A stretch of 64,000 nt of DNA, from assembly GCA_027021335.1 (NCBI GenBank), contig JALUUO010000111.1, forward strand, positions 498 to 64,497. Direction: 5' to 3'. The notes under the pieces were generated by a model. That model was given only the letters and a program-made list of their open reading frames with translations. It was not told the origin of the DNA and ran no database searches. Within the stretch, counting starts at the first letter, position 1. Every line of letters begins with the position of its first letter. Made by a program: the position numbers and the translations under genes. This document shows, piece by piece, positions 486 to 44,232 of the stretch. The stretch is from Nitrospirota bacterium (GTDB lineage Bacteria > Nitrospirota > Thermodesulfovibrionia > SZUA-242).

Positions 486-3269
486 TTACAACCTGCTTAA
501 CAGTTTTTCGGCTTTTCTACGCTCATTAAACTCAGAAGTTTCAAGCGCCCGTTGCAAAGCATGCTTCGCCTCGTTATTTTTTCCTTTTTTCAGGTAAACA
601 AGGCCTAGATGATATTGAATGGAAGGATTGCCGGCACCTTCCAAAGCGGCAGCTCTTATATATTTTAACGCCTCGTCAATTTGACCATTCTTATACAGAG
701 CCCATCCAAGAGTATCTGCCACTTGTGGACGGCCTTTGGAGAGATTGAAAGCCTGCTTTGCAAGCCTGACGGCCTCATCCAGTTGGGTATCAGTATCGGC
801 GTACAGAAACGCGAGGTTGTTCAGAGATGGAACATGGTCCGGCAACACCTTCAGCGCACTGCGATAATTTTCCATCGCAGCCTTTTGATTCCCCAGCCTT
901 TCGTGAGCCGTGGCTATATTATAATAAACAACACCCGAACCAGGTAAAAGAAGCAGGGCATCTTTAAATATTTTCAAAGCCTCTTCATACCTGCCTTGCC
1001 TTATATGCAAGCCTCCCAAAGCCATTAAAACCTGCCCGTTTTTCGGAGCAAGCTTCCTGGCCTTCAGCAAAAGTTTCATGGTTTCACTCTGCCGGGCCTT
1101 ATCCCTGTTACCAGAGATATATGCCAAGGCCTTAAGGTAATACCCAAGACCGCTGGCAGAATCCATCTTAATAATAGAATCGGCAGTCAATATAGCCGAT
1201 GAAAAATCCTTCTTCTTAATCTGCAAACCGGCCAGTTGGGCCAGCACCAGCTTATTTTCAGGCGCCTTTGCAACAGCCTGCCTTAACTCCGACAAAGCGG
1301 CCTCATAGTCTCCAGAAGCCTCATAAGCAGCAGCCAGTCTTATATATCCTGCAACCAGGTCCGGCCGGGCTCTCTTTATCTTTTCATACTCCTTTCGGGC
1401 CTTATCCAGTTCACGTTTTTGGAAGTAAAGCATTCCTTTGAAATTTCTTGCACTTAGGTTTTCCGGGTCTCTGCTTAAAAGTTCGTCAGCTGTCTTTTCG
1501 GCAAGATCATATTCCTTGTTTCTGGCATAGTAAGCTGCAAGCGCCAGAGAACCTTCAGGTGATCCAACACGGCCGGCCTCAAGGTATTTCTCTTTGCTCT
1601 TCTTAGAGCGGCCAAGCTTTTCTAGCAAGGCAGCAGATTTCAACAAAGCCGACACGTTTTTCGGCTCAACTGAGGTAAGGGCTTCGTACTGCAGAAGGGC
1701 CTTGTCAGGCTCATTTTTTCTAATATAATGTTTAGCCAAATTGAAATAAGGCGCAGCAAAACCAGGAGCGGCTTTTATTGCCTTTCTGAAATTATCCTCT
1801 GCCGCAGGCTCGTCTCCTGTTGCAAGCTTGGCAACACCTATTACGTTGTATAAAACAGCGTCTGAAGCCCCGCCATCAAGGCCAGTCGTGCAGATATCAA
1901 TAGCCTTTAAGTAATCTTTTTGTTTCAGATAAAAAATAGCCGCCGTCAACCGCGACCGAACAGACTGTGGGTCAACTTTTAGAGCCGTTTCAAATTCCTT
2001 TTCCGCCTCATCTCCCTTTCCAGCCTGCAAAAAGTAAACTCCACGTTTAAGATAGGTCTCTGCAATACCAGGATCCAGTTCGAGTGATTTATTGAACTCT
2101 GCAAACGCCAGGTCAAATTTCCCCTTGAGCATATATGCGCTTCCAAGCGTATGATGGGCTGTCGCGCTGCCCGGAGCTTTATTTACGGCCTTTTTAGCTT
2201 CGATAACAGCATCCTCAGCATGTCTTTTTTTCTGGTAAATCATACTCAAAAGCACATGAGGCTGGTATAAATTATTGTTCTCCTTTATCGCATGCCTTAG
2301 AGCGCTTATAGCCTGCTCGTAACTACCTTCCTCAAATAGGGCTTGCCCTAGAAAGAAGTTAGCAGCAGCATGGTTGCGCATATATTTGAGAACACTTTGA
2401 AAATCAAGAATCGCTTCGCCCGGCTCTTTCTTTCGTAAATGAACAAGGCCTCTTATATAGTAGCCCTCCGGACGGTCCTTGTTTATGACAAGCAGTTTTT
2501 CCGCTGTTTCCATAGCAGTGTCCAGTCGGCCCTGCCGGATATTAATAAGGGACATCTCGGTCATAGCATTTACCTGCTCAGAGTCTATGTCCAGTATCCG
2601 GCTGTAGTATTCAAGTGCTTTTGATCCATTGTTTGAACGTAATTCTACAAAGGCCAGACCGTAATATGATTTAAGATTCCTGGAATCCAGACTTATAGCT
2701 TTCTCAAAAGCCTTGCGGGCCTCACCCAGGTTCTCTTCTTTTACATAAAGATCACCCAGCACAAGATAAGCTGAAGCTCTCCCGGAATCTAAAGAAAGAG
2801 ATTTAGATATTAACTTATGCGCCTCTGTAAAATTGTTTTTACTTATATAAATGGCGGCAGCAGTATCAAGGGCCTCCAGGTCTTCCGGCCTGGTTTCAAG
2901 GTACCTACTTATGGTTTCAAGCGCCTCATCAAGTTTGTTCCCAAAGTGCAGAGCTTTGGCCAGAGGCAGAAGCGCTTCTTTAAAATCCGGGTTGAGCTTC
3001 AAAACCTTTTTGAGCTCACGCTCTGCCGACTCTATCTTGCCTGTCTTTAAGTATGTCCGGCCAAGATAGAACCTTGCCTCAAAATAGTTTGGATCTTTGC
3101 TTACAGCATTTTTCAGCTCTATTACGGCTACATTAAACTTAGCATCATTAAAAGCCGAAACTCCTTTTTCATAGTGTTTCAGCTTGCTCTTGGTTGCATC
3201 TCCACAACCTATAGAAATCAGAACAATAAGAAAAAGCAGCCACAGTTTACGATTATTGTAAATAGCCAT
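486..3269 (-). CDS. Large TPR-repeat lipoprotein (PrsT-like, PEP-CTERM/EPS-associated type)
   Basis: A ~930-aa protein made almost entirely of TPR-like helical repeats, with a lipobox (LISIGCGD). The likely start is the ATG at 3269, which has a GGAGG RBS 8 nt upstream; the ORF track extends to 3338. It sits immediately upstream of the Wza-like export gene. Confidence 0.6.
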   Translation of the reverse strand: MAIYNNRKLWLLFLIVLISIGCGDATKSKLKHYEKGVSAFNDAKFNVAVIELKNAVSKDPNYFEARFYLGRTYLKTGKIESAERELKKVLKLNPDFKEALLPLAKALHFGNKLDEALETISRYLETRPEDLEALDTAAAIYISKNNFTEAHKLISKSLSLDSGRASAYLVLGDLYVKEENLGEARKAFEKAISLDSRNLKSYYGLAFVELRSNNGSKALEYYSRILDIDSEQVNAMTEMSLINIRQGRLDTAMETAEKLLVINKDRPEGYYIRGLVHLRKKEPGEAILDFQSVLKYMRNHAAANFFLGQALFEEGSYEQAISALRHAIKENNNLYQPHVLLSMIYQKKRHAEDAVIEAKKAVNKAPGSATAHHTLGSAYMLKGKFDLAFAEFNKSLELDPGIAETYLKRGVYFLQAGKGDEAEKEFETALKVDPQSVRSRLTAAIFYLKQKDYLKAIDICTTGLDGGASDAVLYNVIGVAKLATGDEPAAEDNFRKAIKAAPGFAAPYFNLAKHYIRKNEPDKALLQYEALTSVEPKNVSALLKSAALLEKLGRSKKSKEKYLEAGRVGSPEGSLALAAYYARNKEYDLAEKTADELLSRDPENLSARNFKGMLYFQKRELDKARKEYEKIKRARPDLVAGYIRLAAAYEASGDYEAALSELRQAVAKAPENKLVLAQLAGLQIKKKDFSSAILTADSIIKMDSASGLGYYLKALAYISGNRDKARQSETMKLLLKARKLAPKNGQVLMALGGLHIRQGRYEEALKIFKDALLLLPGSGVVYYNIATAHERLGNQKAAMENYRSALKVLPDHVPSLNNLAFLYADTDTQLDEAVRLAKQAFNLSKGRPQVADTLGWALYKNGQIDEALKYIRAAALEGAGNPSIQYHLGLVYLKKGKNNEAKHALQRALETSEFNERRKAEKLLSRL

Positions 3270-3432
3270 AATATTATTGCCTCCAAAAAATATAATAAGC
3301 TGATTGAGATAACTTATTATATACTTTATTTTGGACATAAGGTAAAAAAATCTTCAACAAATACTCTAAGTTATGCTAGTTTATATAAGTATGGATTAAC
3401 TGAAAAGACTTTAGCCTTTGGCAAATGGTCCA

Positions 3433-5609: not shown

Positions 5610-5891
5610 ATGACTAAAGCCACAGCACGGCATATTCTGGTTAACACCCAGGATGCATGTGAAAGCATCAAAGAACAGATCGAAAACGGGGCTGATTTTG
5701 CCGAACTAGCCAAGGAACACTCTCAGTGTCCTTCCGGTCAACGTGGAGGTGACCTGGGTGAGTTCACCTCTGGACAGATGGTTAAGGAGTTCGACCAGGT
5801 TGTATTCAGCGAAAAAGTCGGCGAAGTTCACGGCCCGGTTCAAACTCAGTTCGGCTTTCACCTTATTGAAATTACAAGCCGAAGTGAGTAG
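5610..5891 (+). CDS. ppiC: Parvulin-type peptidyl-prolyl cis-trans isomerase (PpiC-like, 93 aa)
   Basis: ARHILV...CPSGQRGGDLGEF...GPVQTQFGFHLIE matches single-domain parvulins such as E. coli PpiC. Confidence 0.8.
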   Translation: MTKATARHILVNTQDACESIKEQIENGADFAELAKEHSQCPSGQRGGDLGEFTSGQMVKEFDQVVFSEKVGEVHGPVQTQFGFHLIEITSRSE

Positions 5892-5924
5892 ATTTCACTA
5901 GCAGGAGTGCAGGCGTCACTAATT

Positions 5925-5951
5925 CCCCCCCTTTTTTTTTGGGGGGGGGGG
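5925..5951. repeat. Homopolymer hairpin C7-T9-G11 flanked by CTAAT/ATTAG
   Basis: Read directly: ctaatt CCCCCCC TTTTTTTTT GGGGGGGGGGG attag. It lies between ppiC (+) and the convergent Big-domain lipoprotein gene (-). Confidence 0.9.
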
Positions 5952-6058
5952 ATTAGTCGATTGTACCGGAGAGATAAGCAGGAAAATCTATTCCCCATCA
6001 GCCCTGGGATAAGGGCTGATGGGGAAGGTGATTATGTTTTTTTGATGGTTAATACGAA

Positions 6059-8431
6059 TTAATCAACCAAGCCACGAATAGGATTTTCGTACTTATCACC
6101 CTTCCATGTGACAGTAACCGTTAATGTGAACGGTTTAGGGGGATCAGTGTCATCAGGAGTCTTATCCGATACGAAGAAGAACATCTCTACAGGACCAGGT
6201 GTACTGGTGTCAAGAATTTTCACCTCAGTCATACCAAATAGATCCACATCACCGGTTGCCGCCACCTTGATCGTAGTTCCTGCAAGAAGTGGATTCAGGT
6301 GACGATCAGAAACCAGAACTTTAAATTGAAACGATTCTCCATCACAAATAGTAAAAGACCCTGGAGGACTCCAAGCATTAACTATACTTGGATTCGTACA
6401 GTCACCTATGTTTTGGCCTAACACGCTAAATCTATAATAGTATGGCTTTCCTGTATAAAGAAGGGGCATCATTCTAAACAGAGTTTTTGCCTCATCCCAT
6501 TGGCCATTTACATCGTCACATACTCCATTCCCATTTTTGTCTTGATAAAGTTCAACCGGATCATTTAGTCCTGTTGCATCATCACATGTTTCATTGTCAT
6601 TGTAATCTATAAATATCTCATCAGGAGTATCTGTAAAAGGTTCAGCCTCATCAGAGGTGCCGTCTTTATCGCAGTCTACATCAGCATCATCATACACACC
6701 GTTTCCATCACAGTCAACAAAAGCCTCTTCTCCATTTATGCTTACAGTAATTGAAAGCAGACCGTCACGCGGCTGACCCGCCACCGGTTCATCAGGCATT
6801 GGATCCAGCGGAATGCATGGCAGGTCTGTCGATTCAAGATCCGGCAGCGGATCCGGCAACGGATCCGGCGGAAGACATGGAACTTTTATACCATAATCCT
6901 CTGATACATTTTTAAACAAAAGGGTTTCCCACGTTTGAGGTACAACATCTTTCGGAAATTGACGTTGCGTTCTGAACGTTACGGTAGTTATCCCATTGCT
7001 GTCAAGAGTATTAGCGCTTGGAATTGCGCCGGCTTCAGTCATAAATGACACAGTGGTTCCTTCAAGTACATTCGAATTTCCGAAGCGATCTGCAACCCCC
7101 ACAGTGATCTCCGATGTTATGTCATAAAACAATTCAAAGCCCTCAACATTAAGAGGACGTGCTGCTACAGAGAAACTAGCGTAATTTGGAATCCCACCAC
7201 CTATTGAAAGTATCGATGTAACTGATGATATTCCTGTATCAACTACAGTGGCAAGCAACGTGACCGTCCCGGCTTGTATTCCGCTGTGCAGGTATACGGT
7301 TGCTTCACCATCCACCGTGGAAACAGTGGCATGAAAAGGGCTGTCGTACCGACCGTTATCGTTTGATTCGTCATATGCCTCGCCGGTATCATAGCATCCG
7401 TTTCCGTTTGCATCTGTCCATCCCTCTATTACGTTATCATCCTCGTTAATGTACTCACCTCCGTCGACCGGAAGTAGACCTGTGAGACCGGCATCTCCAG
7501 ATGGGTGTACCAGCAAGCAGACATCTATGGCTTCTCCGTCAAGTACCGGGTAACCATTAATATCTTTAATAGCAAACTTTATAGTAGAGAATTCACCTTG
7601 TCCGACACGCTTTATGCCAATAACCGAGGGGTCAGCCGAAGTAAAAAATATACTTCCAGTCTCGGCGCCATTCACTGCAATTTGAACAGTACTGCTACGT
7701 CCGCCAGCAGTGGCTGTAACAGTAACAACACCAGCCGTACTGGAACCAGCCGTAAATGTTGCTCTTGCGATGCCGTTGTCGTCAGTGTTAGCATTGGGAG
7801 TTATGGTTCCAAGGGCAGAATTATCCACAGAAAAGGTGACCTGGGTTCCTGAAGCTACGGGTCCGCCGTCAGTGTCCAAAACAGTAGCTGAAACGCTTGA
7901 CTGCCCGGTGGCTACTATCACTTCAGCAGGAGTTGCTGTAACTTCGACCGACCCTACCGCGCCTATTACTGCAATATTTACCGTACTGCTAACATCTCCT
8001 GCAGTTGCTGTTACAACAGCCGTGCCGGCATTGGTTGAGGAAGCGGTAAATGTTACTGTAGCCTGACCACCAGACGTGGAAGCTGTTGCAGTTATGGTTC
8101 CAGGAGTATCTGATAGACTTCCATATGTTGTCTCGCCCAAGGAAAAGGTGACTACCGTACCGTCCGGGACGCTGTTTCCGTCGGTATCCAATACTGTAGC
8201 AGTCACAATTGTTGTTCCACCTACCGATACCTGGGCAGAACCTGCCGTAACTGTAACCGTGCCGACTGTTACGGTCGTCCCGCCTCCATCACCATCACTA
8301 CCTCCTAAAGCACTCTCACCAGTTGGCGCAGAGGACGAATTGTTATTGCCGCAAGCAGAGATTGCAAGAATCATCAATAAAAACAGGATTTTTTTTAGTT
8401 TATTATTAATAAATTCGCAATTATTTTGCAT
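6059..8431 (-). CDS. Large surface lipoprotein with tandem Big_1 (invasin/intimin-type Ig-like) domains, an Asp-rich Ca-binding-like region and a PD/LP linker
   Basis: Lipobox LAISACGNN. Repeated A.V.D.DGN.V..G..V.F....G....TVT.T..AGG..S.V.IAV modules (4-5 copies). DxDGNGxxDD / DCDxDG Asp-rich motifs. DPLPDPLPD linker. C-terminal ~170 aa unassigned. The AAGGAG RBS fits the start at 8431. Confidence 0.6.
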   Translation of the reverse strand: MQNNCEFINNKLKKILFLLMILAISACGNNNSSSAPTGESALGGSDGDGGGTTVTVGTVTVTAGSAQVSVGGTTIVTATVLDTDGNSVPDGTVVTFSLGETTYGSLSDTPGTITATASTSGGQATVTFTASSTNAGTAVVTATAGDVSSTVNIAVIGAVGSVEVTATPAEVIVATGQSSVSATVLDTDGGPVASGTQVTFSVDNSALGTITPNANTDDNGIARATFTAGSSTAGVVTVTATAGGRSSTVQIAVNGAETGSIFFTSADPSVIGIKRVGQGEFSTIKFAIKDINGYPVLDGEAIDVCLLVHPSGDAGLTGLLPVDGGEYINEDDNVIEGWTDANGNGCYDTGEAYDESNDNGRYDSPFHATVSTVDGEATVYLHSGIQAGTVTLLATVVDTGISSVTSILSIGGGIPNYASFSVAARPLNVEGFELFYDITSEITVGVADRFGNSNVLEGTTVSFMTEAGAIPSANTLDSNGITTVTFRTQRQFPKDVVPQTWETLLFKNVSEDYGIKVPCLPPDPLPDPLPDLESTDLPCIPLDPMPDEPVAGQPRDGLLSITVSINGEEAFVDCDGNGVYDDADVDCDKDGTSDEAEPFTDTPDEIFIDYNDNETCDDATGLNDPVELYQDKNGNGVCDDVNGQWDEAKTLFRMMPLLYTGKPYYYRFSVLGQNIGDCTNPSIVNAWSPPGSFTICDGESFQFKVLVSDRHLNPLLAGTTIKVAATGDVDLFGMTEVKILDTSTPGPVEMFFFVSDKTPDDTDPPKPFTLTVTVTWKGDKYENPIRGLVD

Positions 8432-8487
8432 GACAATCTCCTTATTTTAAAAAAACTTTAGACGCGGTAACATAAAGATGGAATCTC

Positions 8488-8979
8488 TTATCCTCCACCA
8501 CCACCTGCTGTAGCAAGAGCTTTCACATCTATCTTGGCCAGTCCACCAGCCGTACCGGATGTCGCCTCCAGCTGAAACTTATATACCATACCAGCACCGC
8601 TTAGAAGCTGGAGTCTAACCGTATATGTTCCATCATCTCCTGTACATACCGTAGCAGGATTAGAAAGATTAGAGTTGCCGGTCGTCATCATCTGGGCCAC
8701 ACCCCACTCCTGACCGTTTGCACCCACTACCAATTCAACATCATTTAGGGGCATACCATCAGCATTGTGAACACTGATAGTAAAATCCTGGGTAGTGGTG
8801 GTAACAGAACTACTGCCGTCAGAAATCTTTAAGTCTTTAGGAAATATTGTTATCTTAGATCCATCCGGAGCAACATCTCCTCCACATCCGCTGCCGCATC
8901 CTACAAAAAACACAGGCAATAAACAGAGAATAAAAACAGACGAAACAGCAAGCAACCTTTTCCCGGTTAAAAACCTCAT
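8488..8979 (-). CDS. Small lipoprotein translationally coupled to pilQ (unknown function)
   Basis: The start overlaps the pilQ stop (ATGA, 8976-8979). Signal peptide with lipobox FFVGCGS. Gly-rich C-terminus. Confidence 0.5.
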   Translation of the reverse strand: MRFLTGKRLLAVSSVFILCLLPVFFVGCGSGCGGDVAPDGSKITIFPKDLKISDGSSSVTTTTQDFTISVHNADGMPLNDVELVVGANGQEWGVAQMMTTGNSNLSNPATVCTGDDGTYTVRLQLLSGAGMVYKFQLEATSGTAGGLAKIDVKALATAGGGGG

Positions 8980-11396
8980 TTCAAGCCCCTCTCTTTCACG
9001 ATTCGTGGCGTAATAAAAATCAGCAGCTCAGTAATCTCATCAATTTTACTGCTGGACTTAAACAGCCAGCCAAACCCTGGAATATCTCCAAGAATAGGGA
9101 TTTTAGTTTCACGCTCGGTAAAGTCCTTGGTGTATATCCCTCCTATCACTATTGTATCCCCATCCTTAACCAGCGCCTGCGAGGTCACCTCGTTCAAATC
9201 AATGCTGGGACCATCTGGCGTATTAACACCAACTGCGTTGCGGGTAACAAGCAGTTTCAGTTGAATATATCCGCCTGGCGTGATCTTAGGCGTAACCTTA
9301 AGACTCAAAGTGGCATCAACAAACTCTGTCTGTGTGCCCTCCTGGGAAACCGACTTATACGGAATTTGCGTACCCTGCTTAACCTCTGCCTCTTCATTGT
9401 CCATGGTCATTATTCTGGGATTCGAAAGCGTTCTGCCTCCATTTAATTCCTCTAAAGCAGCCAGCTGTACATCCAGGGTAAGAGCATCAGCTATACTTCC
9501 AAGGGATATGGACATATTCGGGTCTATGCCTCCAAATCCCACATTGGTTGCCAGAGATCCACCTATCCTGTTTGGAAACTGCACACCGGTAGGGTTGCCA
9601 TGAGCGGCATCCAAATTCAATGTTCCAGACCAGTCGATTCCCAGATCCTTTGCAGTGCTGGTTCTTATGGTGACCATCCGGGCTTCTATCAGAACCTGCT
9701 GCTTGGGAATGTCTATTATTTTGACAAGGTCCATCAGCTTATCTATGCTTTCCTGGACATCCTGAATGATTATCATATTCATTCTTTTATCCACACTTAT
9801 ACGCCCTCTTGTTGTCATTATCTTACCCTGCCTAAGTGACGTATAAACATCCTGTGCATTTGCATAGTTTAATGCAATTGCACGCTGATATAGTTCTCCG
9901 GCTCTGAGCTTAGAGTCCCTGCTTTTGGCAACAGTATCCTGTTCACTGGCAAAAATTTCCGGTGGAGCAACCCTAAGAATGTTACCCTCGATCACCTTCT
10001 TCTGTCCGGACAACTTAAGAACAATGTCCAAAGCTTGATCCCAGGGAACATTCTTAAGATTCAAACTAGGAATTCGTCCTTTGACTTCAGGGTGAATAGC
10101 AAGGTTGTATCCCCCAACGTCAGCCAATAACCTGAGTATTTGAACCACATCGGCATCCTGAAAGTCTAGAGATATTCTCTTACCGGCATGAGTCATAGCC
10201 TTATCTGCCAGTGGCACAGCTTCTACCTGAGCGATATCTTTAGTTAGATCCTTTGGCTCTTCCACTACTGCCACTTCCGAACCTGCTTCAACCGTGGTGG
10301 CATCAAAAACTGCAGCAGGCGGAACTATAGAAACAATAATACCTGCCGGTCCTGTGCTAACATCATACTCGGTTGTTTCATAAAGGTCGATCACTACTCT
10401 TGTTTTATCCCTGTAAGCTCCAGCCCGTATTGCCTTTATAGGTGAAACTACAGACTCAACAGCACCGGTTACCGCCGGAGATGCCCCAGGAACATCCACA
10501 ATAATACGTCTTCTACCAACAGCGTAAACATCAGGCTCTACTTCTTTATCAGTAGCAATTTCCACATTAACCCGACCGTCAAAACTCCCAACCGTGATAC
10601 CTGTGATAGTAGAGACGGCCGGAGCACCGGCATTTTCAATCTCGGCTGAAGCGGCCACTTTTTCCTCTTTAACCACAGCTCCAACCTCGGCTGAAGATTG
10701 AGCATTTTCTTCGGCCGCGGCAAGATCGGCTTGTTCGGCCTGCCCGCCGTGAACACCTTGGTCGGACGAGAGACCATCGGCAGGCGAAGTCTGATCCGCC
10801 TCTTCCGTATGTTTCGGTTTTGCTGCTACAGCGACAATACCGGACAAGGCCTGAGCTTCAGTTTCAGGCGCTGGAGATTCTTCTTCTATCGCCGATACAC
10901 TTTCTATCGCTGGTACGCTCTCTGCTTCTGCTACAGGTGGAGAAGCAGGTACTGCCGCCGCAAGAGACTGAGACTTTGGTATTTCCAGTAATAGATGATT
11001 TCCCTCGATTCTGGGCGCAATATCGATAGGAGCCGTCAAGCCAATCTCAAAACGGGCCATAGGCGATGGAGTTTTAATCTGTTTAGGAACTATTTCAAAA
11101 ATGGAATCCTTGTCAACCAGGATTCTCTGCGTATGTTCACCTAAGTTGGCTGCCGTAAGTTCCACAACAACACGAAAAGGATCAGACGGCTTGTACATTG
11201 TAAAAACAAGCGGCATGTCTGCTTCTATGTCAATAATTTGTCTGTCGCTTTTGTCGATTACCTTAACGCTTTTGATCGAAGGACCTTGGGATACAACAGG
11301 AGTTTTTTCCACCTGAGCGCCTGCCGAGCCATAACCGGCAAAAGCAAAAATAAGAAAAAAAAGCAGAAAGAAAGACCGGGATCTATTCTTCATCAT
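8976..11396 (-). CDS. pilQ: Type IV pilus secretin PilQ
   Basis: N-terminal AMIN-like domains separated by an Ala/Glu/Pro-rich linker, a secretin N domain, and a C-terminal secretin domain (…ELLIFITPRIV). The gene follows pilMNOP. Confidence 0.9.
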   Translation of the reverse strand: MMKNRSRSFFLLFFLIFAFAGYGSAGAQVEKTPVVSQGPSIKSVKVIDKSDRQIIDIEADMPLVFTMYKPSDPFRVVVELTAANLGEHTQRILVDKDSIFEIVPKQIKTPSPMARFEIGLTAPIDIAPRIEGNHLLLEIPKSQSLAAAVPASPPVAEAESVPAIESVSAIEEESPAPETEAQALSGIVAVAAKPKHTEEADQTSPADGLSSDQGVHGGQAEQADLAAAEENAQSSAEVGAVVKEEKVAASAEIENAGAPAVSTITGITVGSFDGRVNVEIATDKEVEPDVYAVGRRRIIVDVPGASPAVTGAVESVVSPIKAIRAGAYRDKTRVVIDLYETTEYDVSTGPAGIIVSIVPPAAVFDATTVEAGSEVAVVEEPKDLTKDIAQVEAVPLADKAMTHAGKRISLDFQDADVVQILRLLADVGGYNLAIHPEVKGRIPSLNLKNVPWDQALDIVLKLSGQKKVIEGNILRVAPPEIFASEQDTVAKSRDSKLRAGELYQRAIALNYANAQDVYTSLRQGKIMTTRGRISVDKRMNMIIIQDVQESIDKLMDLVKIIDIPKQQVLIEARMVTIRTSTAKDLGIDWSGTLNLDAAHGNPTGVQFPNRIGGSLATNVGFGGIDPNMSISLGSIADALTLDVQLAALEELNGGRTLSNPRIMTMDNEEAEVKQGTQIPYKSVSQEGTQTEFVDATLSLKVTPKITPGGYIQLKLLVTRNAVGVNTPDGPSIDLNEVTSQALVKDGDTIVIGGIYTKDFTERETKIPILGDIPGFGWLFKSSSKIDEITELLIFITPRIVKERGLK

Positions 11397-11950
11397 TCCT
11401 CCTCTTTTCGGAGTTCCAAATACGTGGTCTGCGGTGTCACCTCTATTTCACCCCTATAATTATAATTTTCTATCATTTCGACTATCTGCACAGAATTAAG
11501 ATTTATTTTTGTCACCTCTCCATTGTTCAAGCCTATATGGGTTCCTTTTCTCACCATAAAGCCCTTTCCATCAGGGGCAACAAGCATCGCGACATTTCCA
11601 TCCTTTACTGCGACTATTCCAATAAGCTTAAAGCTGCTGATGTCGTAACTTTCAAGTGGCGAGAGCCCCTTGGTTACCCTTTTCTTTTTCCTATCAGCCG
11701 GAGCAACAGCCTTAATAAGGCTTTTAAATGGATCGCGTTTTCCGGCATGAGTGTAGGAGAGAGTTTCCCTGTTTGTTATTTCAGCTGCTCTCGCAGCCGG
11801 GTCAAACTTAAGTTCCGGCTCCATTTTTTTTGCGGCAGGCTTTACAACAGGTGTTGTTTTTTTCGCTTCGCATCCAGGAAAAAATAACGCGGATACAACT
11901 ATAATACTAAACAGGAGCAGAAGTATATCACTTTTTTTAGCCCACGCCAT
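11393..11950 (-). CDS. pilP: Type IV pilus assembly lipoprotein PilP
   Basis: Lipobox FFPGCEA, ~185 aa, position between pilO and pilQ, 4-nt overlap with pilQ. Confidence 0.75.
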   Translation of the reverse strand: MAWAKKSDILLLLFSIIVVSALFFPGCEAKKTTPVVKPAAKKMEPELKFDPAARAAEITNRETLSYTHAGKRDPFKSLIKAVAPADRKKKRVTKGLSPLESYDISSFKLIGIVAVKDGNVAMLVAPDGKGFMVRKGTHIGLNNGEVTKINLNSVQIVEMIENYNYRGEIEVTPQTTYLELRKEEE

Positions 11951-11952
11951 GC

Positions 11953-12588
11953 CTAAGGTGTACCCCCTCCACTTTGCCCTGTATTGGATGTTGCAGCAAA
12001 AGCGGTAGCTACAAACTGTACGTCAAGCAGGTTTCCGGCAGCAGCATTTTCACTCTGTTTTTTACTGTCGGAGACCTTAATTTCCGAAATGTTAACTATT
12101 CTGGTCATAGCGCTTATCTGGCTAAAAAATCTTCCCAGGTTGTGATATCCGCCTGTAACGACAACCTTTACCGGAATCTCATCATAAAGCCCGCTAGGAT
12201 TCGTCCTTTTCTGTCCCGGAATCCAGGAAATAATTTCAAGTCCTGATGCCAGACCGAGATCCGAAATCTGACGTAAAAGACCGGACACCTCTTTCTCTTC
12301 CGGCAACTGCTCCTGGAGTTCCTTCAACCGTGCCTGCAACCATTCATTTTCAGCCTTCAACACCACCAGGCGTCTCGCCTTTGTCTCCTTAATGCTGATC
12401 TCATTCTCCTGTTTTTGTATCTGCATTAACAGACTGTTTATTTTCTTATTTTTCGGCTGATACTGAACAAAGTAGAACGCTACCACAAGCAAGACCGGAG
12501 CCAGAATCACGATAATTATCTGAACCCAGCCGGGCAGTTTGTTGATAGAGTTAAGGTTGAAATCTGTTTTTAATGCCAAAGCAGCCAT
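11953..12588 (-). CDS. pilO: Type IV pilus assembly protein PilO
   Basis: Single N-terminal TM followed by a coiled-coil, ~210 aa, positioned between pilN and pilP. Confidence 0.75.
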   Translation of the reverse strand: MAALALKTDFNLNSINKLPGWVQIIIVILAPVLLVVAFYFVQYQPKNKKINSLLMQIQKQENEISIKETKARRLVVLKAENEWLQARLKELQEQLPEEKEVSGLLRQISDLGLASGLEIISWIPGQKRTNPSGLYDEIPVKVVVTGGYHNLGRFFSQISAMTRIVNISEIKVSDSKKQSENAAAGNLLDVQFVATAFAATSNTGQSGGGTP

Positions 12589-12597
12589 AAAACCCCA

Positions 12598-13137
12598 TTA
12601 AACCTTCATATGCATCATAATCTTGAAAGAGTAGACAGGCACATCCTCAATATTAATCTTCTTTGTCTCAACAAGCACAACATTCGAAAAGTACTCTGAT
12701 CCTTTCAAGCTATCCACAAAAGTTACAATCTCGGCATTTGAAAAACCTTTGCCCGAAATTTTAATCAGCCAGTTGTTTTCCTCCAGGGAGTCAAGCCAAA
12801 CACCGCCTGTTACCCTTGATACCATCTCAACCATAAGGCGGACCGGCGCGTTCTGAGTCTGTTGCAGCCGTTCTATTATATTTTTCTTTTCTTCAAATGC
12901 CTTGTTGTTCGCCTCGTAGTTTTGAACCTCTCTGATTTGTTTATCCAGTTCAGCAATCTTTTTTTGATTGTTCTGCCTTTGTACCGTATAACTTTTAATT
13001 TTTTTATTTAAATAAGAGGAAGTGTAAGCAAGCCCGATAGCAGTACAAAAAAGTATCACAACCAGAGCGCCAATAAAAGGAGGAACAGGAATGGGTTTCT
13101 TTCGCCTTTTTACAGGAAGGAGATTGATTCTGATCAT
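12598..13137 (-). CDS. pilN: Type IV pilus assembly protein PilN
   Basis: MIRINLLP N-terminus, a TM segment, ~180 aa, and a 4-nt overlap with pilM. Confidence 0.8.
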   Translation of the reverse strand: MIRINLLPVKRRKKPIPVPPFIGALVVILFCTAIGLAYTSSYLNKKIKSYTVQRQNNQKKIAELDKQIREVQNYEANNKAFEEKKNIIERLQQTQNAPVRLMVEMVSRVTGGVWLDSLEENNWLIKISGKGFSNAEIVTFVDSLKGSEYFSNVVLVETKKINIEDVPVYSFKIMMHMKV

Positions 13138-14255
13138 CTGTCCCCAATCCTCCTTACTGCCAAACCCATAGCAATTACCAGCTGGGGAGCGACTTCCCTC
13201 AGCATATCCTTATCCAGTGTCTTTCCTATTCGGACGTTACGAAATGGGTCTATCATCTCAACTTCCATGCCGGTAAGCTCAGCCAGCCTCTGCTGAAAGC
13301 CTTTTATCAAAATACATCCACCGGAAAGCATCACTTTATGAACATCCTCATGCATAAAGGTTCCTTTAAAGTAGTCAAGGGAACGCGAAATCTCGTTAAT
13401 TATGTCTTCGGATGAATTCTGGATTATCGCATCTGCATCTTCTTCCGAAACTTCCTCTATCGTTTCCCCATGCTTAAGGCGTTCCGCATCCTCAAAAGTA
13501 AGGCCCAGCTCCTTCTGGATCGCCTCTGTCTGAATATTACTGCCAACCGAACTATCACGAGTGAAAACCGAAACCCCGCTTTTTAATATATTCAAATTGA
13601 TACGACTTGCCCCCACGTTTACCAGAGCCACGTTCTGCTCCGACTCAATGTCGTAATTAATCTCGTAAGCATTCTCCAGGGCAAAAGCATCCACATCCAC
13701 AACAGCCGGGGTAAGGTCAGCCTCCTGCACAACCGATACATACTCGTTGATTTTGTCCTTTTTGACAGCGACAAGGAGAACCTCCATCTGGTCCGCCTCT
13801 TCCGTGGGACCCAGTATATGGAAGTCCAGGTTTACATCATCAATATCAAATGGAATATATTGTTCGGCTTCGAAACGGATAGATTCCGTCAACTCATCCT
13901 CTGTCATTTCAGGTAGCGTTATTCTTTTTATAATGACAGATGAATGCCCCGATACGGAAATGGTTACGTTTTTAGTCTTGATTCCGGTGTTTTGAAATAA
14001 AGCTTTAAGGCCATCAACAACTCGAAGAGAGTCAAGTATCGATCCATCAACAATCAGTTCGGGTTCTATCGGCATTATACCAAACCGCTCGACCTGAAAA
14101 CCTTTAGATGTATCTTTTATCTCTATAACCTTGATATATCGCGAGCCTATATCCAGGCCGACAATCCGCTGGCTTCTAAAAAATGAGAGCAATTCAGAGA
14201 ATGGATCTAAAATTGACATACAAACGTTTTTAACAGAATGACTGATGTTTGTCAA
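13134..14255 (-). CDS. pilM: Type IV pilus assembly ATPase-fold protein PilM
   Basis: Actin/FtsA-like fold with VGLDIGSRYIKVIE near the N-terminus. First gene of pilMNOPQ. The start may be the internal ATG at 14219. Confidence 0.85.
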   Translation of the reverse strand: MTNISHSVKNVCMSILDPFSELLSFFRSQRIVGLDIGSRYIKVIEIKDTSKGFQVERFGIMPIEPELIVDGSILDSLRVVDGLKALFQNTGIKTKNVTISVSGHSSVIIKRITLPEMTEDELTESIRFEAEQYIPFDIDDVNLDFHILGPTEEADQMEVLLVAVKKDKINEYVSVVQEADLTPAVVDVDAFALENAYEINYDIESEQNVALVNVGASRINLNILKSGVSVFTRDSSVGSNIQTEAIQKELGLTFEDAERLKHGETIEEVSEEDADAIIQNSSEDIINEISRSLDYFKGTFMHEDVHKVMLSGGCILIKGFQQRLAELTGMEVEMIDPFRNVRIGKTLDKDMLREVAPQLVIAMGLAVRRIGDR

Positions 14256-14259
14256 GCTT

Positions 14260-15420
14260 TTATTTGTCTTCTTCTTTGTTTTTTTCCTTCTCGGACTTCT
14301 TTCTAAATCTCTTTAATTCCGCCAAAGTCTCATAAGTTACGGGAGTACTTTCAAGATACAGACTACGTGAAGGAAAGGCAACAGACATGCCAAGATCTTC
14401 GACTATCTCCATAATTTTAAGGTTCACATCAGTACGAACTTTTAGGTACTCGCCCCACACTGTTGTTTTACTGAAAAAATAGAGGAATATCTCGAGAGCG
14501 CTATCACCAAAATCAGTAAATTCAACAAAAACAGTCTGTTGGTGAATCTCAGGATGCTTACGAAGCATATCTTCTATGCGATTAAGGCATTCAACCATCT
14601 GGCTCCTTTTAGTGGAGTAAGTAACGCCAAGCTTGTAAGTTATGCGCCGTTTTCCCATTCGGCTCCAATTGGTAATGCTGTCGGATGCCATCATAGAATT
14701 GGGCACTGTAACAAGCGCCTGAGCAAAAGTGCGTACACGCGTAGAACGAAATGCAATTTCTTCCACCGTGCCTTCGACATTATTCGTTTTTATCCAGTCA
14801 CCTACCACAAATGGTTTATCAACCAGAATCATCATACATCCGAAAAAGTTAGACACCGTATCTTTGGCCGCCAGGGCAAAGGCCAGGCCGCCTAAGCCCA
14901 GCCCTGCTACCAGGCCTCCCACATCGTAGCCCCACTCCTGCACCAGGATCACCACACCGAGCGCGACAACAAGTGTTCTGATGGACCTCTGAAGAATAGG
15001 CATCATGTAGTCGTCCAGAGTAGTTTCGGTCTTTCTGGCAAGACTCTCCAGCATGGAAGAAAGCACAGAGGCCGCCCTGTATGCCGCCCATATAATCGAG
15101 AAAGCCACAATAGAGCGGATTAAGTGTCTTGTAAAATCAGCCGCATCAGGAGGCAATCGAAGAATTACTCCGAAAATCCATACGGCAAGGGCTACAAAAA
15201 GAAGCCTTACAGGCGGGGTTATTGTATCAAGGAGGCTGTCGTCCAGCTTGGTTTTTGTCTTCTTGGTCCATATCCTTGCAAATCCAAAGACAATTCTGGT
15301 AAACATTCGGCGAAGAATCAGGATTCCCAGAAAGGCCAGGAAGGCAAAGGTAATTCTGCTTAGGCTTACATTCAGAAAAGAATAGTCAAACAGTGATTTT
15401 ATCTGACTTAAGATGTCCAT
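14260..15420 (-). CDS. Mechanosensitive ion channel, MscS family
   Basis: Multiple TM helices followed by an MscS beta-domain (GTVEEIAFRSTRVRTFAQALVTVPNS). The ATG at 15420 has a GAGGGA RBS, whereas the ORF track start at 15486 overlaps sirC. Confidence 0.8.
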   Translation of the reverse strand: MDILSQIKSLFDYSFLNVSLSRITFAFLAFLGILILRRMFTRIVFGFARIWTKKTKTKLDDSLLDTITPPVRLLFVALAVWIFGVILRLPPDAADFTRHLIRSIVAFSIIWAAYRAASVLSSMLESLARKTETTLDDYMMPILQRSIRTLVVALGVVILVQEWGYDVGGLVAGLGLGGLAFALAAKDTVSNFFGCMMILVDKPFVVGDWIKTNNVEGTVEEIAFRSTRVRTFAQALVTVPNSMMASDSITNWSRMGKRRITYKLGVTYSTKRSQMVECLNRIEDMLRKHPEIHQQTVFVEFTDFGDSALEIFLYFFSKTTVWGEYLKVRTDVNLKIMEIVEDLGMSVAFPSRSLYLESTPVTYETLAELKRFRKKSEKEKNKEEDK

Positions 15421-15442
15421 TAACTCCCTCTTCCACCATCTC

Positions 15443-16021
15443 TCACTTTTTTCCCCGGATTTTATCCGGCACGCACCGGGCTCCAAGAGCCTTCAGGTAG
15501 CGTTTTCTCTCAAGCGGATCGGAAATTTCTCTAAGTGCCTTTTCTCTCTTAATCTTTACTTGGCCTAGATACTTCTTGAACTCAGGACCGTAGAAATCCT
15601 CCAGTTCAAGTCGTATAGCACGCGCCAAAGCCGGACTGATACCTCCTGTGGATACCGCAATCAGAAGGGCACCCCTGTTTATGCTGGAAGGCACGATAAA
15701 ATTTGAAAGATCTGCACAATCAACCACGTTACAAAGCAGCGGTGCATCGCGCGCCACGCGCATATTAACATCCTTAGAGTCTGTGGCCGCAATAGCCAGG
15801 AAGGAACTCTTCAGATCGCCCCTGCGATAACGCCGTTTTATATGAGTTACGTTCCCCTTTTCAACATGTCTTTTCAGCCTGGCGGTAATTGCAGGACTTA
15901 TCACAACCACACTGGCCCCTGCTTTAAGAAGAGAACGCACTTTTCTCTCTGCAACACGGCCGCCGCCGACCACTACTGTTTTTTTTCCTGCCAGATCAAG
16001 GAACGCCGGGTAATAGGACAT
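15443..16021 (-). CDS. sirC: Precorrin-2 dehydrogenase / sirohydrochlorin ferrochelatase (siroheme synthase N-terminal domain, SirC/CysG-N-like)
   Basis: FLDLAGKKTVVVGGGRVAERKVRSLLKAGASVVVISP Rossmann motif resembling the CysG N-terminus; ~190 aa. Confidence 0.75.
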   Translation of the reverse strand: MSYYPAFLDLAGKKTVVVGGGRVAERKVRSLLKAGASVVVISPAITARLKRHVEKGNVTHIKRRYRRGDLKSSFLAIAATDSKDVNMRVARDAPLLCNVVDCADLSNFIVPSSINRGALLIAVSTGGISPALARAIRLELEDFYGPEFKKYLGQVKIKREKALREISDPLERKRYLKALGARCVPDKIRGKK

Positions 16022-16836
16022 TAGGGGGATAACGATAATGTATCAAGGATCTCACGGGCTCTGGCAGCCTGCTTGCTCGAAGGATACCTGGAGACCAGCA
16101 AAGACAATATTTCCCCGGCCTTGCCGGTATTGTCCATCTCTTTGTAAGCCCGTCCAAGTTTAAGCAACACATCAACTTCCACTGTGGACTCAGGAAAATC
16201 TTTAAGAAGACCTTCAAATCGGCCAATAGCCGCCCTATAGGCACCTTTTTTTAAATAGAACGACCCAACATAATCCTCGTATTCTGCAAGCAGGTTGTTA
16301 CACTTGACGATTTTTGCTAACGCAGACTTACGATACCGGTTGTTCCGGTACCTTTTTAGAAGATTATGAAACTCTCTTCTAGCGATTAAAATATTTTCGA
16401 AACTGCGATCAACAGAATCTATCTGCTCGAAATAGCTAAGAGCCAGCATATACTGGGCATAAGGAGCCTTTTTATGATAGGTATGAAGGTCCAGAAAAGC
16501 CTTGTACTCTATGGCAGCCTCCATATGTTTTCCTTGGGCAAAATAAGAGTCTGCTATCAAAATAAGAGCATTTACATAGTATTTTTTTTCAGCATCCCTG
16601 GCTTTAAGCGCCTCCAGGAGTTCCCGCGTTCTTTCGAAGTTTTTATCTTTAAACTCCTTTCTAGCCTCCTTCAGTAGTTCTGCAGGCGGCCTGTTCATCG
16701 GATCGGCCATTATGGATGCACAGCCGATGAAGAAGAGTAAAAAAGGTATTATAAAAGTAAAACGGATTATTCTCATGATTATGTTTAATACCCTTTTTAA
16801 GCATACACAGTCAACCGTAGAGCTTTTTACAGCCAT
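16021..16836 (-). CDS. bamD: TPR lipoprotein, probable outer-membrane assembly factor BamD (alternatively a pilotin-type TPR lipoprotein)
   Basis: Lipobox FFIGCAS, TPR repeats, ~250-270 aa. Start is uncertain (16836 or 16776); neither has a good RBS. Confidence 0.5.
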   Translation of the reverse strand: MAVKSSTVDCVCLKRVLNIIMRIIRFTFIIPFLLFFIGCASIMADPMNRPPAELLKEARKEFKDKNFERTRELLEALKARDAEKKYYVNALILIADSYFAQGKHMEAAIEYKAFLDLHTYHKKAPYAQYMLALSYFEQIDSVDRSFENILIARREFHNLLKRYRNNRYRKSALAKIVKCNNLLAEYEDYVGSFYLKKGAYRAAIGRFEGLLKDFPESTVEVDVLLKLGRAYKEMDNTGKAGEILSLLVSRYPSSKQAARAREILDTLSLSP

Positions 16837-40112: not shown

Positions 40113-40796
40113 GTGTTTAACCTTGGGAAAAACTGTTTTTGCAATCACTGGGGAAGATCGCTTATCGAACAACTGCTTGTAGTGGCCACTATAGGCATAG
40201 TAGCAGCTGTCGGGGTGCCGGAATACAGCAAATTTGCCTCTAAAAATAGAATAAAAAGAGCTGCTAACGACCTGGTCCAGGAGATGAGACTTACCAGGAC
40301 AATCGCCATGCTGGAAAACAGGGAGTATTTAATGATTTTCGATAAAGATCCTGACTCGAACCCCGGCACTAATGATGACAGATACCTTATCGGCTTTGAC
40401 GGAGATGGAGACAAGCAACTGAAAACCCAGGGCATCGATGGATACCAAAACGGGCCTGTAAAGGTTATAAACCTTTCCGATTATGGACCAGCTGTAACGT
40501 TTGGAACGCTTTCCGAACGCAGAACAAACGGCGACCCGGTGGATAACTCTTATTGCAAAGGCAAAACCGCCTGCTTCGGCAATACCAAGCCTGCACGTGA
40601 AGTATTCAAGCCCTCCGGATCTGTTGGTTTTAGAGGATCTGTATACTTTCAAGACAACCCGGATAAGTTCAACTCAAGAGGTTTTTCCTATGCTGTTGTG
40701 GTGAGCAACTTTTCCGCAAGAATTAACCTATGGCGCTGGAACGGTGAAAAAGATAAGCCGCCTTCAAGTTTTCCGTACTGGACGGAGCTGCGTTAG
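40113..40796 (+). CDS. Type IV pilin-like minor pseudopilin, FimT/FimU (GspH) family, paralogue 1
   Basis: Prepilin cleavage/methylation motif G|RSLIEQLLVVATIGIVAAVGVP (Glu at +5), ~210-aa mature protein, and a conserved C-terminal WRWNG...W.E. GTG start; the 14-aa leader is MFNLGKNCFCNHWG. Confidence 0.7.
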   Translation: MFNLGKNCFCNHWGRSLIEQLLVVATIGIVAAVGVPEYSKFASKNRIKRAANDLVQEMRLTRTIAMLENREYLMIFDKDPDSNPGTNDDRYLIGFDGDGDKQLKTQGIDGYQNGPVKVINLSDYGPAVTFGTLSERRTNGDPVDNSYCKGKTACFGNTKPAREVFKPSGSVGFRGSVYFQDNPDKFNSRGFSYAVVVSNFSARINLWRWNGEKDKPPSSFPYWTELR

Positions 40797-40864
40797 TGCC
40801 TGATGAATATGCCAGCGCTTCCGGACACAAAAGCGTCAAAATATGTAAAGATGTTCCGTATGCT

Positions 40865-40880
40865 ATGTAATTCATTACAT
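40865..40880. promoter_or_regulatory. Inverted repeat ATGTAAT-tc-ATTACAT ~95 bp upstream of the sigma-54-like promoter; candidate enhancer-binding (bEBP) site
   Basis: Read directly; the position is consistent with an upstream activator sequence. Confidence 0.3.
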
Positions 40881-40966
40881 AATCACGGATGTCTTATGCT
40901 CTTTGCAACCTTAAAAAACACTTAAGTTTCAGCATGTTTTATCCGACCGGGAAAATACGTATATCC

Positions 40967-40982
40967 TGGCATGAAAGATGCT
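40967..40982 (+). promoter_or_regulatory. Sigma-54 (RpoN)-type promoter candidate TGGCAT-N5-ATGCT upstream of the second FimT-like gene
   Basis: GG and GC dinucleotides sit at the canonical -24/-12 spacing (TGGCATgaaagATGCT), ~75 nt upstream of the ATG at 41059. Confidence 0.4.
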
Positions 40983-41058
40983 GGCAAATCTGTAAGTGGA
41001 GGCTTGAATTATAATGTGTTTATGCTGTTTATCAAGTAAAGGGGGCGCCAAGTAAATA

Positions 41059-41793
41059 ATGTTTAGCATGAAAAGTATCTATTTCTGCAACCGGCGTGGC
41101 GTATCTCTTATCGAGCTGGCTGTTGTAATTGCGATTACAGGTTTTATAGCGGCCATAGGAATTCCTCAATACAGCAGGTTTGCTGCTAAAAACAGTGTGC
41201 AAAGATTTGCAAGCGACTTGGTCCAGAATATAAGACTTGCAAAAACAATAGCTGAAAAGGAAGACAGAGAGTATTTAATAGTTTTCGACCAGGTTAATAA
41301 CAGGTACTTATTCGGCTTTGATGGAAACGGTGACGGCGATCTTCTTGACGTTACTATTGATGGATTCGGAACCTGCCAATATGATGCAAATAATAATGGA
41401 ACCATAGAAGAAACTGAAAGAACTCCGGCTAATGATCAGGATCTTAATCTCGACGGCGTGCCTGATTGCATAAGAGTTGTGAATTTAAACGATTATGGGA
41501 ACTACGTAGCAATCGGTTATCAGGAACTAGACTCAATAATGCCGCCAAACCCTCCAGATCCAGATTATCCGCCTATTCCCGCTACCGGCCTGGATTTTCC
41601 TGGTAATACTATTGTTTTTAACAATTTAGGTGCCGTTGATAGCCCGGGGTTTATTTACCTTCAGCATGCCAACACCAACAGCGGTTACAGTTACTGCGTA
41701 GCTGTAGTCGGATTCGCAGGTGGAGTAAGCATGTGGAGATGGGATGGAGATGCGGCAAGGCCAGCTGTGACAACATGGACGGAGGTAAGATGA
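41059..41793 (+). CDS. Type IV pilin-like minor pseudopilin, FimT/FimU (GspH) family, paralogue 2
   Basis: G|VSLIELAVVIAITGFIAAIGIP prepilin motif. Clear paralogue of the 40113 gene (shared ...NRIKR/VQRFA.DLVQ..RLA/TRTIA...EYL..FD...YL.GFDG.GD... and a C-terminal WRW.G). The 14-aa leader is MFSMKSIYFCNRRG. Confidence 0.7.
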   Translation: MFSMKSIYFCNRRGVSLIELAVVIAITGFIAAIGIPQYSRFAAKNSVQRFASDLVQNIRLAKTIAEKEDREYLIVFDQVNNRYLFGFDGNGDGDLLDVTIDGFGTCQYDANNNGTIEETERTPANDQDLNLDGVPDCIRVVNLNDYGNYVAIGYQELDSIMPPNPPDPDYPPIPATGLDFPGNTIVFNNLGAVDSPGFIYLQHANTNSGYSYCVAVVGFAGGVSMWRWDGDAARPAVTTWTEVR

Positions 41794-42290
41794 AACAGGG
41801 GAGGGCAGGACAAAACGGCTTCACACTTGTCGAGGTTCTTGTGGCGCTTGTAGTGCTGATATCCGGTATGCTTGGAGTAATGGGCATGCAGTACATGTCT
41901 GTGCAGGGAAACGCTACAAGCAGAAATATGAGGGTTGCCACAAATCTTGGACAAATGCAGATGGAGATGTTACAGGCAACGCCATTTAATAATCTCGCGC
42001 AAGGCAATGACTCTCCTGTGCTGGACAATTCGACATCCGGAGGTGTTGTGTTTCAAAGAATATGGTGGGTGCAGCCAAACTGTTCTGTTCTTGCATTAGG
42101 CATAAATGATGCAAATGACAACCCCGCTGATCCATGCAACCCTGCTCTTTTAGGCACGGATATCTGTGTCGTGGATCCCGACCCCGCTGCTGCAGCGCCG
42201 GTTTCGGCCATTCGTGTAAGAACCTGCTGGACCGACCGCTTCGGCAACGCTCACTCGGTAACCTTTAACGATGCCAAGAACAATCTTTAG
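41790..42290 (+). CDS. pilV: Type IV pilus minor pilin PilV
   Basis: MKQGRAGQNG|FTLVEVLVALVVLISGMLGV is the canonical PilV N-terminus. Strong GGAGGTAAG RBS. The start overlaps the stop of the preceding gene. Confidence 0.8.
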   Translation: MKQGRAGQNGFTLVEVLVALVVLISGMLGVMGMQYMSVQGNATSRNMRVATNLGQMQMEMLQATPFNNLAQGNDSPVLDNSTSGGVVFQRIWWVQPNCSVLALGINDANDNPADPCNPALLGTDICVVDPDPAAAAPVSAIRVRTCWTDRFGNAHSVTFNDAKNNL

Positions 42291-42312
42291 ACTCTGCGAG
42301 GTGGAATATATA

Positions 42313-43320: not shown

Positions 43321-43334
43321 AGAGGAGGAATCTT

Positions 43335-43886: not shown

Positions 43887-43918
43887 CTTTTATAAATACA
43901 AAGAGGAGATAAACAGTT

Positions 43919-44221: not shown

Positions 44222-44232
44222 GAGGTGACGTT

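Follow-up and report, generated by a model that had tools for sequence, protein, structure and literature searches.

A conserved lipoprotein pair associated with type IV filament secretin clusters follows pilMNOPQ in a Nitrospirota genome

[quoted passage not shown] PulA, SslE and MtrC/OmcA are further surface lipoproteins that depend on a secretin system (PMC9245377). In the 64,000-nucleotide stretch of a Nitrospirota bacterium analysed here (contig JALUUO010000111.1, positions 498 to 64,497; the window), an InvL-like architecture is encoded beside another secretin gene: genes for two lipoproteins of 163 and 790 aa, called Sm and BIG in the following, directly follow pilMNOPQ, which includes the gene for the type IVa pilus (T4aP) secretin PilQ. 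Sm and BIG constitute a genuine, conserved and unannotated cassette associated with secretin clusters of type IV filaments, and this two-lipoprotein unit appears to have been kept by evolution near such clusters, above all near pilMNOPQ.

T4aP machines are thought to be well inventoried, comprising PilMNOPQ, PilBTC, the pilins, PilY1, pilotins and TsaP/FimV, and the Nitrospirota and Desulfobacterota are important in nitrogen, sulfur and metal cycling and in biofilms. The cassette described here is kept by the secretin operon across both phyla, with no Pfam or NCBIfam family for either Sm or the head of BIG, and the two sizeable families that it defines are worth curating as domain models.

The locus lies wholly on the minus strand of the window and comprises the following features, the Pfam matches of pilM being those of the identical gene on L001, a public contig that matches the window:

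13134-14255, minus strand: pilM, 373 aa, first pil cistron of the unit (open reading frame, ORF; PilM_2/FtsA Pfam matches in L001)
12598-13137, minus strand: pilN, 179 aa, overlapping pilM by 4 nt (ORF)
11953-12588, minus strand: pilO, 211 aa (ORF)
11393-11950, minus strand: pilP, 185-aa lipoprotein, overlapping pilQ by 4 nt (PF04351 PilP, 1.2e-18)
8976-11396, minus strand: pilQ, type IVa pilus secretin, 806 aa (TIGR02515 IV_pilus_PilQ, 8e-116; Secretin, 2.5e-47; AMIN, STN, Secretin_N)
8976-8979, minus strand: ATGA, in which the Sm ATG (8979-8977) overlaps the pilQ TGA (8978-8976) (sequence)
8488-8979, minus strand: Sm, 163-aa lipoprotein with signal peptide, lipobox (C28/C32), one invasin-type Ig domain (residues ~38-155) and poly-Gly tail
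8438-8443, minus strand: AAGGAG ribosome-binding site, 6 nt 5' of the BIG ATG, inside the 56-nt Sm-BIG spacer (8432-8487) (sequence)
6059-8431, minus strand: BIG, 790-aa lipoprotein (Cys27) of invasin-like architecture
7670-8266, minus strand: BIG residues 56-254, two Big_1 Ig domains forming a stalk of variable length, with 1 to >25 domains in homologues (Pfam, homologue comparison)
6062-7660, minus strand: BIG residues 258-790, conserved and family-defining distal module (invariant alignment columns; spacing from ADRFGN to the C-terminus)
5991-6026, minus strand: intrinsic terminator, 15-bp stem with 9 GC pairs and T-rich tail, 33 nt past the BIG stop, marking the end of the transcription unit (consensus scan)

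Sm and BIG are real genes, both being ORFs with conserved homologues, and they are tightly packed behind the pil cistrons, with intergenic gaps of -4 (pilM/N), 9 (pilN/O), 2 (pilO/P), -4 (pilP/Q), -4 (pilQ/Sm) and 56 nt (Sm/BIG). A Shine-Dalgarno-like run, GAGAGGGG, lies at 8993-8986, just 5' of the Sm start codon. The original prediction, made from the sequence of this locus, had placed the start of the smaller gene over the pilQ stop codon and a canonical ribosome-binding site before the larger one, and both signals are found (ATGA at 8979-8976, AAGGAG at 8443-8438). The consensus scan revealed no promoter-like or terminator-like site, such as would set these genes apart from pilQ, at either the pilQ/Sm or the Sm/BIG junction; given this and the strong terminator after BIG, a single transcription unit ending past BIG is the simplest reading. 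Sm and BIG are therefore predicted to close the pilMNOPQ transcription unit as its final two cistrons, co-transcribed with pilQ, and Sm to be translationally coupled to it. Directly 5' of pilM (14260-16836, minus strand) lie bamD (YfiO), a sirohaem-synthase-like NAD_binding_7 gene and an mscS-family channel gene, in an order that is identical in L002; since only 4 nt separate the mscS stop from the pilM start, the transcription unit may begin 5' of pilM.

BIG carries the lipobox LAISA-C27-GNNN, with Gly at +2, followed by a Gly/Ser/Asn linker of about 28 residues that leads into the first Ig domain. Its matches to Big_1 (1.1e-18) and Invasin_D3 (3.7e-15) in Pfam bear out the tandem invasin-type Ig domains that had been read from the sequence. 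Beyond them, the distal module consists of two further Ig-like domains, one of which contains the motif ADRFGN (residues 447-452), a helix, an Asp/Asn-rich region and a C-terminal beta-sandwich. The description of this C-terminal domain as unassigned holds, since the last 250 aa match nothing meaningful in Pfam (E up to 10) and no sequence in the PDB. More than 200 homologues have the full BIG architecture. In 86 loci the spacing from ADRFGN to the C-terminus is nearly constant, with a median of 300 aa, while the N-terminal part measures from about 250 to 3,190 aa and complete ORFs, those adjacent to pilQ included, range from about 550 to 3,525 aa. A stalk so variable (proteins of up to 3,525 aa), joined to a constant head, argues for a surface adhesin rather than a fixed part of a periplasmic machine, and BIG may be pictured as an acylated Cys, a flexible Gly/Ser linker, a Big_1 stalk of varying domain number and a constant head of about 530 aa.

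The Asp/Asn-rich residues 554-650 hold loops of the DxDxDG type. BIG has five [DN]x[DN]x[DN]G motifs where 0.24 are expected, a number reached in 0 of 2000 shuffles, and the motif occurs at aligned positions in 18 of 19 homologues, with D573, G578, D601, D609 and D631 conserved. This enrichment and recurrence make the earlier label of calcium-binding-like motifs a reasonable one, and the head is probably stiffened by calcium in these loops. The DPLPDPLPD linker that had also been singled out is present (as PPDPLPDPLPD, residues 522-532); like the Asp-rich insert at residues 310-365, it turned out to be specific to the clade of the window and is no feature of the family.

Other identities considered for BIG were rejected. 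An alpha-2-macroglobulin (A2M) is contradicted by Foldseek comparison of the Ig array with the macroglobulin arrays of A2M and C3 (TM-score <=0.17) and by the lack of any A2M-family Pfam match. As regards PilY1, BIG has no match to PF05567, and the window encodes a separate PilY1 at 44233-49410 (plus strand), a homologue of 1725 aa in which He_PIG and PKD Ig domains precede the PilY1 beta-propeller. This gene belongs to a minor-pilin cluster (40113-49410, plus strand) with a GspH/FimU-like gene, two N_methyl pseudopilins, PilW and PilX, situated about 30 kb from pilMNOPQ and on the opposite strand; because a separate cluster for minor pilins and PilY1 is present in the window, BIG is taken not to be the pilus-tip adhesin. 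Known partners of secretins such as PilF/PilW/Tgl, TsaP and FimV were likewise discarded for Sm as well as BIG, as Pfam detects no TPR or LysM domain in either, in agreement with the original prediction.

Compared with InvL, BIG shares the lipoprotein signal, the absence of a beta-barrel and an invasin-type Ig array ending in a distinct distal domain, a likeness of architecture; it thus combines the two traits, lipoprotein signal and Ig array without a barrel, that define an InvL-type lipoprotein at the level of sequence. It differs in its head, which combines DxDxDG loops with Ig domains and a novel beta-sandwich, and in its genomic tie to the pilMNOPQ genes of the T4aP; for InvL, neither a small partner lipoprotein nor a place in the secretin operon has been reported. 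PulA, SslE, MtrC and OmcA resemble BIG in being lipoproteins whose genes often lie near secretion genes, and they need a secretin system to reach the surface (PMC9245377). These proteins are enzymes or cytochromes, unlike the Ig-rod adhesin that BIG would be. PulA, moreover, has Asp at +2 (Lol avoidance), as against the Gly of BIG. With the invasin/intimin inverse autotransporters (type Ve secretion system, T5eSS) BIG shares tandem Big_1/Invasin_D3 passenger domains; as Pfam finds neither a 12-stranded beta-barrel nor LysM in it and no C-type-lectin tip was detected, it is no member of the intimin/invasin/FdeC group, although by analogy it may work like a T5eSS passenger domain.

In Sm the lipobox reads FFVG-C28-GSG-C32-GG, with C32 aligning to the invariant lipobox Cys of the family and Gly at +2. 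The protein has an all-beta Ig fold, and in hhalign it matches the lipobox and first Big_1 domain of BIG (E 9.5e-6), from which Sm can be described as a lipid anchor joined to a single Ig domain of the invasin type. Searches of Pfam, NCBIfam and PDB sequences gave no match to Sm, and a PDB profile search with the Sm family was also empty. A word-seeded search with Sm returned only five close relatives, and a metagenome scan with the narrow alignment three loci. A profile to which small ORFs located 3' of pilQ at distant loci were added (identities of 46% and 25%) picks up 17 proteins. An exhaustive HMMER scan with it gave a family that comprises, at 50% identity, 432 clusters, of which 193 reach E<=1e-10; almost all members are single-domain proteins of 145-170 aa. 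A Sm-BIG fusion of the 'Rosetta stone' kind was sought and none was found, the longer proteins with Sm domains being other multi-Ig proteins. PilP was rejected as an identity for Sm, which fails the PilP test.

The distribution of the cassette was assessed in a scan of one genome per species, from which the 80 best loci were scored with hidden Markov models (HMMs) and phmmer. These loci come from Nitrospirota (Thermodesulfovibrionia, Nitrospiria) and Desulfobacterota (Desulfobacterales, Desulfuromonadales/Geopsychrobacteraceae, Syntrophales), the remainder being a few Acidiferrobacterales/Muproteobacteria-like metagenome-assembled genomes (MAGs) and one Nitrospinota MAG. The linkage to pilQ occurs in Nitrospirota, Desulfobacterota and a few Pseudomonadota-like MAGs. 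Of the two phyla suggested for a check of neighbourhood conservation, Desulfobacterota thus shows it, and no Myxococcota occurs among the 80 best loci. The closest relatives among the named MAGs recovered are Nitrospirota, with about 42-46% identity for BIG and Sm. Three distant loci found by exact protein look-up, one of them in a Nitrospirae MAG, all run from pilMNOPQ through a small ORF to BIG, with BIG identities of 76%, 42% and 42%. Twelve of the 80 loci are uninformative, with BIG at a contig edge. Among the 68 informative loci, pilQ is found 5' of BIG on the same strand and within 8 kb in 53, so that linkage of the homologues to pilQ extends well past the window. The arrangements are as follows:

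pilQ immediately upstream on the same strand, with only Sm or nothing between: 32 of 68 loci
pilQ 0.9-2.8 kb upstream, with aroK-aroB or another lipoprotein gene between: 12 of 68 loci
pilQ 2.8-8 kb upstream, with aroB-TPR-pepP-accB-accC-mqnA-like or aroC/K/B/D between: 9 of 68 loci
pilMNOPQ nearby in another orientation (L031, L035, L055): 3 of 68 loci
beside another type IV filament cluster: 3 of 68 loci
BIG alone among apparently unrelated neighbours, with no type IV filament genes and no Sm: 9 of 68 loci

Overall, the cassette lies near type IV filament clusters in at least 8 distinct gene orders. The L055 locus has pilM and ponA in divergent orientation, and a 214-aa ORF and then Sm-BIG come after ponA. 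One Desulfuromonadales genome (L046/L087) has a second BIG copy, next to which come a divergent He_PIG protein and then pseudopilin, MshM-like, T2SSF, MshE and secretin genes. In Desulfonema magnum 4be13, a cultured, gliding sulfate reducer, a BIG homologue of 1624 aa is directly followed by AAA_22 (MshM/ExeA-like), MshEN+T2SSE, T2SSF and sigma-54 activator genes (L080, 9755-21257), and in L053 a T2SSE-family ATPase is encoded 2 kb from BIG. A further candidate carrier is Desulfosudis/Desulfococcus oleivorans, the assignment of MAG L027. For the solitary copies, one example of a neighbour is an apparent UvrB, judged from its N-terminal sequence only. In two Nitrospirota contigs (L096, 2-10068; L089, 4265-22328) a complete T2SS (gspC-D-E-F-G...) comes right after pilMNOPQ-(Sm)-BIG, placing BIG at the boundary of two secretin systems.

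Lipoproteins of the Ig type appear to have a hotspot in the slot 3' of pilQ. An extra lipoprotein of 578 aa with no Pfam matches (8206-9942) is inserted ahead of BIG and after pilQ (or Sm) in L006, and an extra Big_1-like lipoprotein of 675 aa (7790-9817) in L037. In four Geopsychrobacteraceae loci (L022, L023, L029 and L044) pilQ and BIG are kept apart by a conserved block, at about 3.3-10 kb of these loci, composed of aroB, genes for a TPR protein and a small roadblock/LC7-like protein, pepP, accB, accC and an mqnA-like gene; the Trichloromonas locus (L045) has this aroB-to-mqnA-like block 3' of BIG instead. In the window, aroC and a fused aroK-aroB gene (533 aa) are found just after the PilY1 cluster (51422-54344, plus strand). 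As aroC/K/B directly follow pilQ-Sm-BIG in the relatives L005 and L006, the widespread pilQ-aro synteny has been split up and moved in the window genome.

Within the cassette, Sm keeps to BIG rather than to pilQ. In 28 of the 30 loci with a match to the Sm HMM the Sm-to-BIG gap is between -105 and +151 nt, whereas the distance from pilQ to Sm varies from an overlap to 5.9 kb; in Nitrospiria the order is pilQ-aroK-aroB-Sm-BIG. In 16 loci, mainly of Desulfobacterales, Syntrophales and Trichloromonas, pilQ runs straight into BIG with no room for Sm, and in L072, L077, L078 and L086 more divergent small lipoproteins occupy the Sm position. The ATGA overlap is restricted to the window, L002 and L005, and elsewhere the gap from pilQ to Sm is 43-222 nt or several kb. 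The smaller protein had been presented as pilQ-coupled, which may hold for the junction in these three loci and does not carry over to other genomes. On this pattern of occurrence, Sm is the predicted partner of BIG and not primarily a pilQ-coupled protein; as its distribution follows BIG and not pilQ, it is unlikely to be a classical pilotin, and the pilotin candidate was ruled out on distribution and fold.

Taken together, we favour, at roughly even odds (about 0.5), the reading in which BIG, partnered by Sm, is a lipid-anchored, calcium-stiffened adhesin displayed at the cell surface, with a functional coupling to the secretin operon of the T4aP. After Sec-dependent export and lipidation, both proteins would be directed to the outer membrane. 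BIG would then be shown on the cell surface, either being merely co-expressed with the pilus secretin or depending on the secretin and T4aP to cross the outer membrane, like InvL and PulA with the T2SS, and its short-range, durable attachment would complement long-range capture and retraction by the pilus. Sm could interact with BIG as a dedicated partner, serving as a membrane-proximal base or as an assembly or targeting factor, and would not act as a PilQ pilotin. The earlier suggestion of a pilus-linked adhesin module is consistent with this proposal. Were BIG a pilus-coupled adhesin, it would provide the missing 'holdfast' step of pilus-mediated colonisation in these phyla; were it to need PilQ to reach the surface, the T4aP system would be capable of T2SS-like lipoprotein display, which would bear on how secretin systems handle lipidated cargo, a question raised for PulA and InvL (PMC9245377).

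Several points weigh against such a role. Literature searches found no paper on the Sm or BIG families and no experimental data for any member, and nothing in the sequence of either protein proves surface exposure. By the E. coli +2 rule, Gly or Ser at this position would simply have Lol deliver both proteins to the outer membrane's periplasmic face. A pilus adhesin of the PilY1 type is already encoded in the window. Nine of the 68 lineages have BIG alone among unrelated genes and without Sm, and the housekeeping genes aroC/K/B/D, pepP, accB and accC can separate pilQ from the cassette, so that the synteny is strong and not absolute. The association of pilMNOPQ with aroKB is, to our knowledge, a conserved synteny without functional meaning, and adjacency alone is accordingly no proof of function. 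Sm-family members also occur apart from BIG: after pilQ together with a different multi-Ig protein (L095), as a tandem-Sm gene alone beside minor-pilin genes (L093), and as a weak member 5.6 kb from pilMNOP (L094). Finally, a T2SS (gspC-D-E...) lies directly 3' of BIG in three loci (L011, L058/L089, L096), with an S8 subtilisin-type protease gene between BIG and the T2SS in L096, so that the relevant secretin could be GspD rather than PilQ.

Some of these points would be accommodated if Sm and BIG were ordinary envelope or surface lipoproteins riding an ancient pilMNOPQ-aro block, as aroK and aroB do, with no link to the pilus. The aro and acc genes that part the cassette from pilQ in Nitrospiria, Geopsychrobacteraceae, L018 and L065, the genomes with a solitary BIG, and an order relative to the aro genes that flips between lineages could all be explained in this way. 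We regard this as rather unlikely, since proximity to type IV filament genes has been kept through many independent rearrangements, a second paralogue lies by an MSH-like secretin cluster and the Desulfonema BIG by mshE/T2SSF genes, and the 4-nt overlap and single terminator put the genes in the pil operon here.

A more specific possibility, which we consider unlikely, is that BIG is cargo of the T4aP itself, crossing the outer membrane by way of PilQ and the pilus piston or aided by them, while Sm acts as a targeting or docking adaptor. Type IV pilus-dependent export, in which a non-pilin protein encoded in or near the operon crosses the outer membrane, is known for TcpF of Vibrio cholerae and from Francisella and Dichelobacter. 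The cargoes concerned are soluble proteins, mostly of type IVb or atypical systems, and we know of no lipoprotein cargo of the T4aP machine. A PilQ-dependent BIG would be the first of its kind and a mechanistic bridge between T4aP and T2SS.

It is quite improbable that BIG is instead a T2SS substrate like InvL and PulA, its adjacency to pilQ being a historical trace of T4aP and T2SS clusters that were once contiguous. The InvL precedent does involve the T2SS, and the gspC-gspD-gspE(-F-G...) genes after BIG in the three loci named above, together with the secreted-type S8 protease in one of them, would fit. However, the T2SS is downstream in only 3 of about 70 loci, the 64-kb window contains no T2SS genes, and the conserved neighbour is pilQ.

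Sm resembles the non-TPR pilotins (PulS/AspS/MxiM/ExsB-YscW) in being a small outer-membrane-type lipoprotein that is encoded with a secretin and overlaps its stop codon. It has thus to be asked whether Sm is a novel non-TPR pilotin or stabiliser of PilQ, held in a fixed ratio by translational coupling, with BIG as a separate passenger gene. Its small size, the Gly at +2 with a predicted outer-membrane destination, a start codon that overlaps the end of pilQ (ATGA) in the window, L002 and L005, and the lack of a PilF/Tgl-like gene in the operon (the search having covered the operon and not whole genomes) are compatible with this, and some pilotins such as ExsB/YscW are beta-sandwich lipoproteins. 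Yet Sm does not co-distribute with the secretin and has no structural similarity to a known pilotin; it tracks BIG, is missing at the 16 loci in which pilQ directly adjoins BIG, and in Nitrospiria is separated from pilQ by aroK-aroB, which makes a pilotin role very doubtful. Finally, Sm and BIG could both be structural accessories that belong to the T4aP machine and face the periplasm, forming for instance a collar at the N-domains of PilQ. This would suit lipoproteins that, like PilP, share an operon with the genes of the alignment subcomplex, but is highly improbable given BIG lengths of about 550 to 3,525 aa even next to pilQ, as against a fixed periplasmic span, and the dispensability of Sm in whole orders.

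Two further observations concern the region beyond the 3' end of the cassette. Between a ppiC-like gene (5610-5891, plus strand) and the BIG terminator, a homopolymer palindrome of the form TAATT-C7-T9-G11-ATTAG (5920-5956) could act as a terminator in both directions or be a tract prone to slippage. At 486-3338 (minus strand) a 950-aa protein consisting entirely of TPR repeats is encoded, with a weak match to TPR_Slam among many TPR families; it adjoins Poly_export/GNVR polysaccharide-export genes (gene calls from L001) and is probably part of an exopolysaccharide or PEP-CTERM-type system rather than of the pilus.

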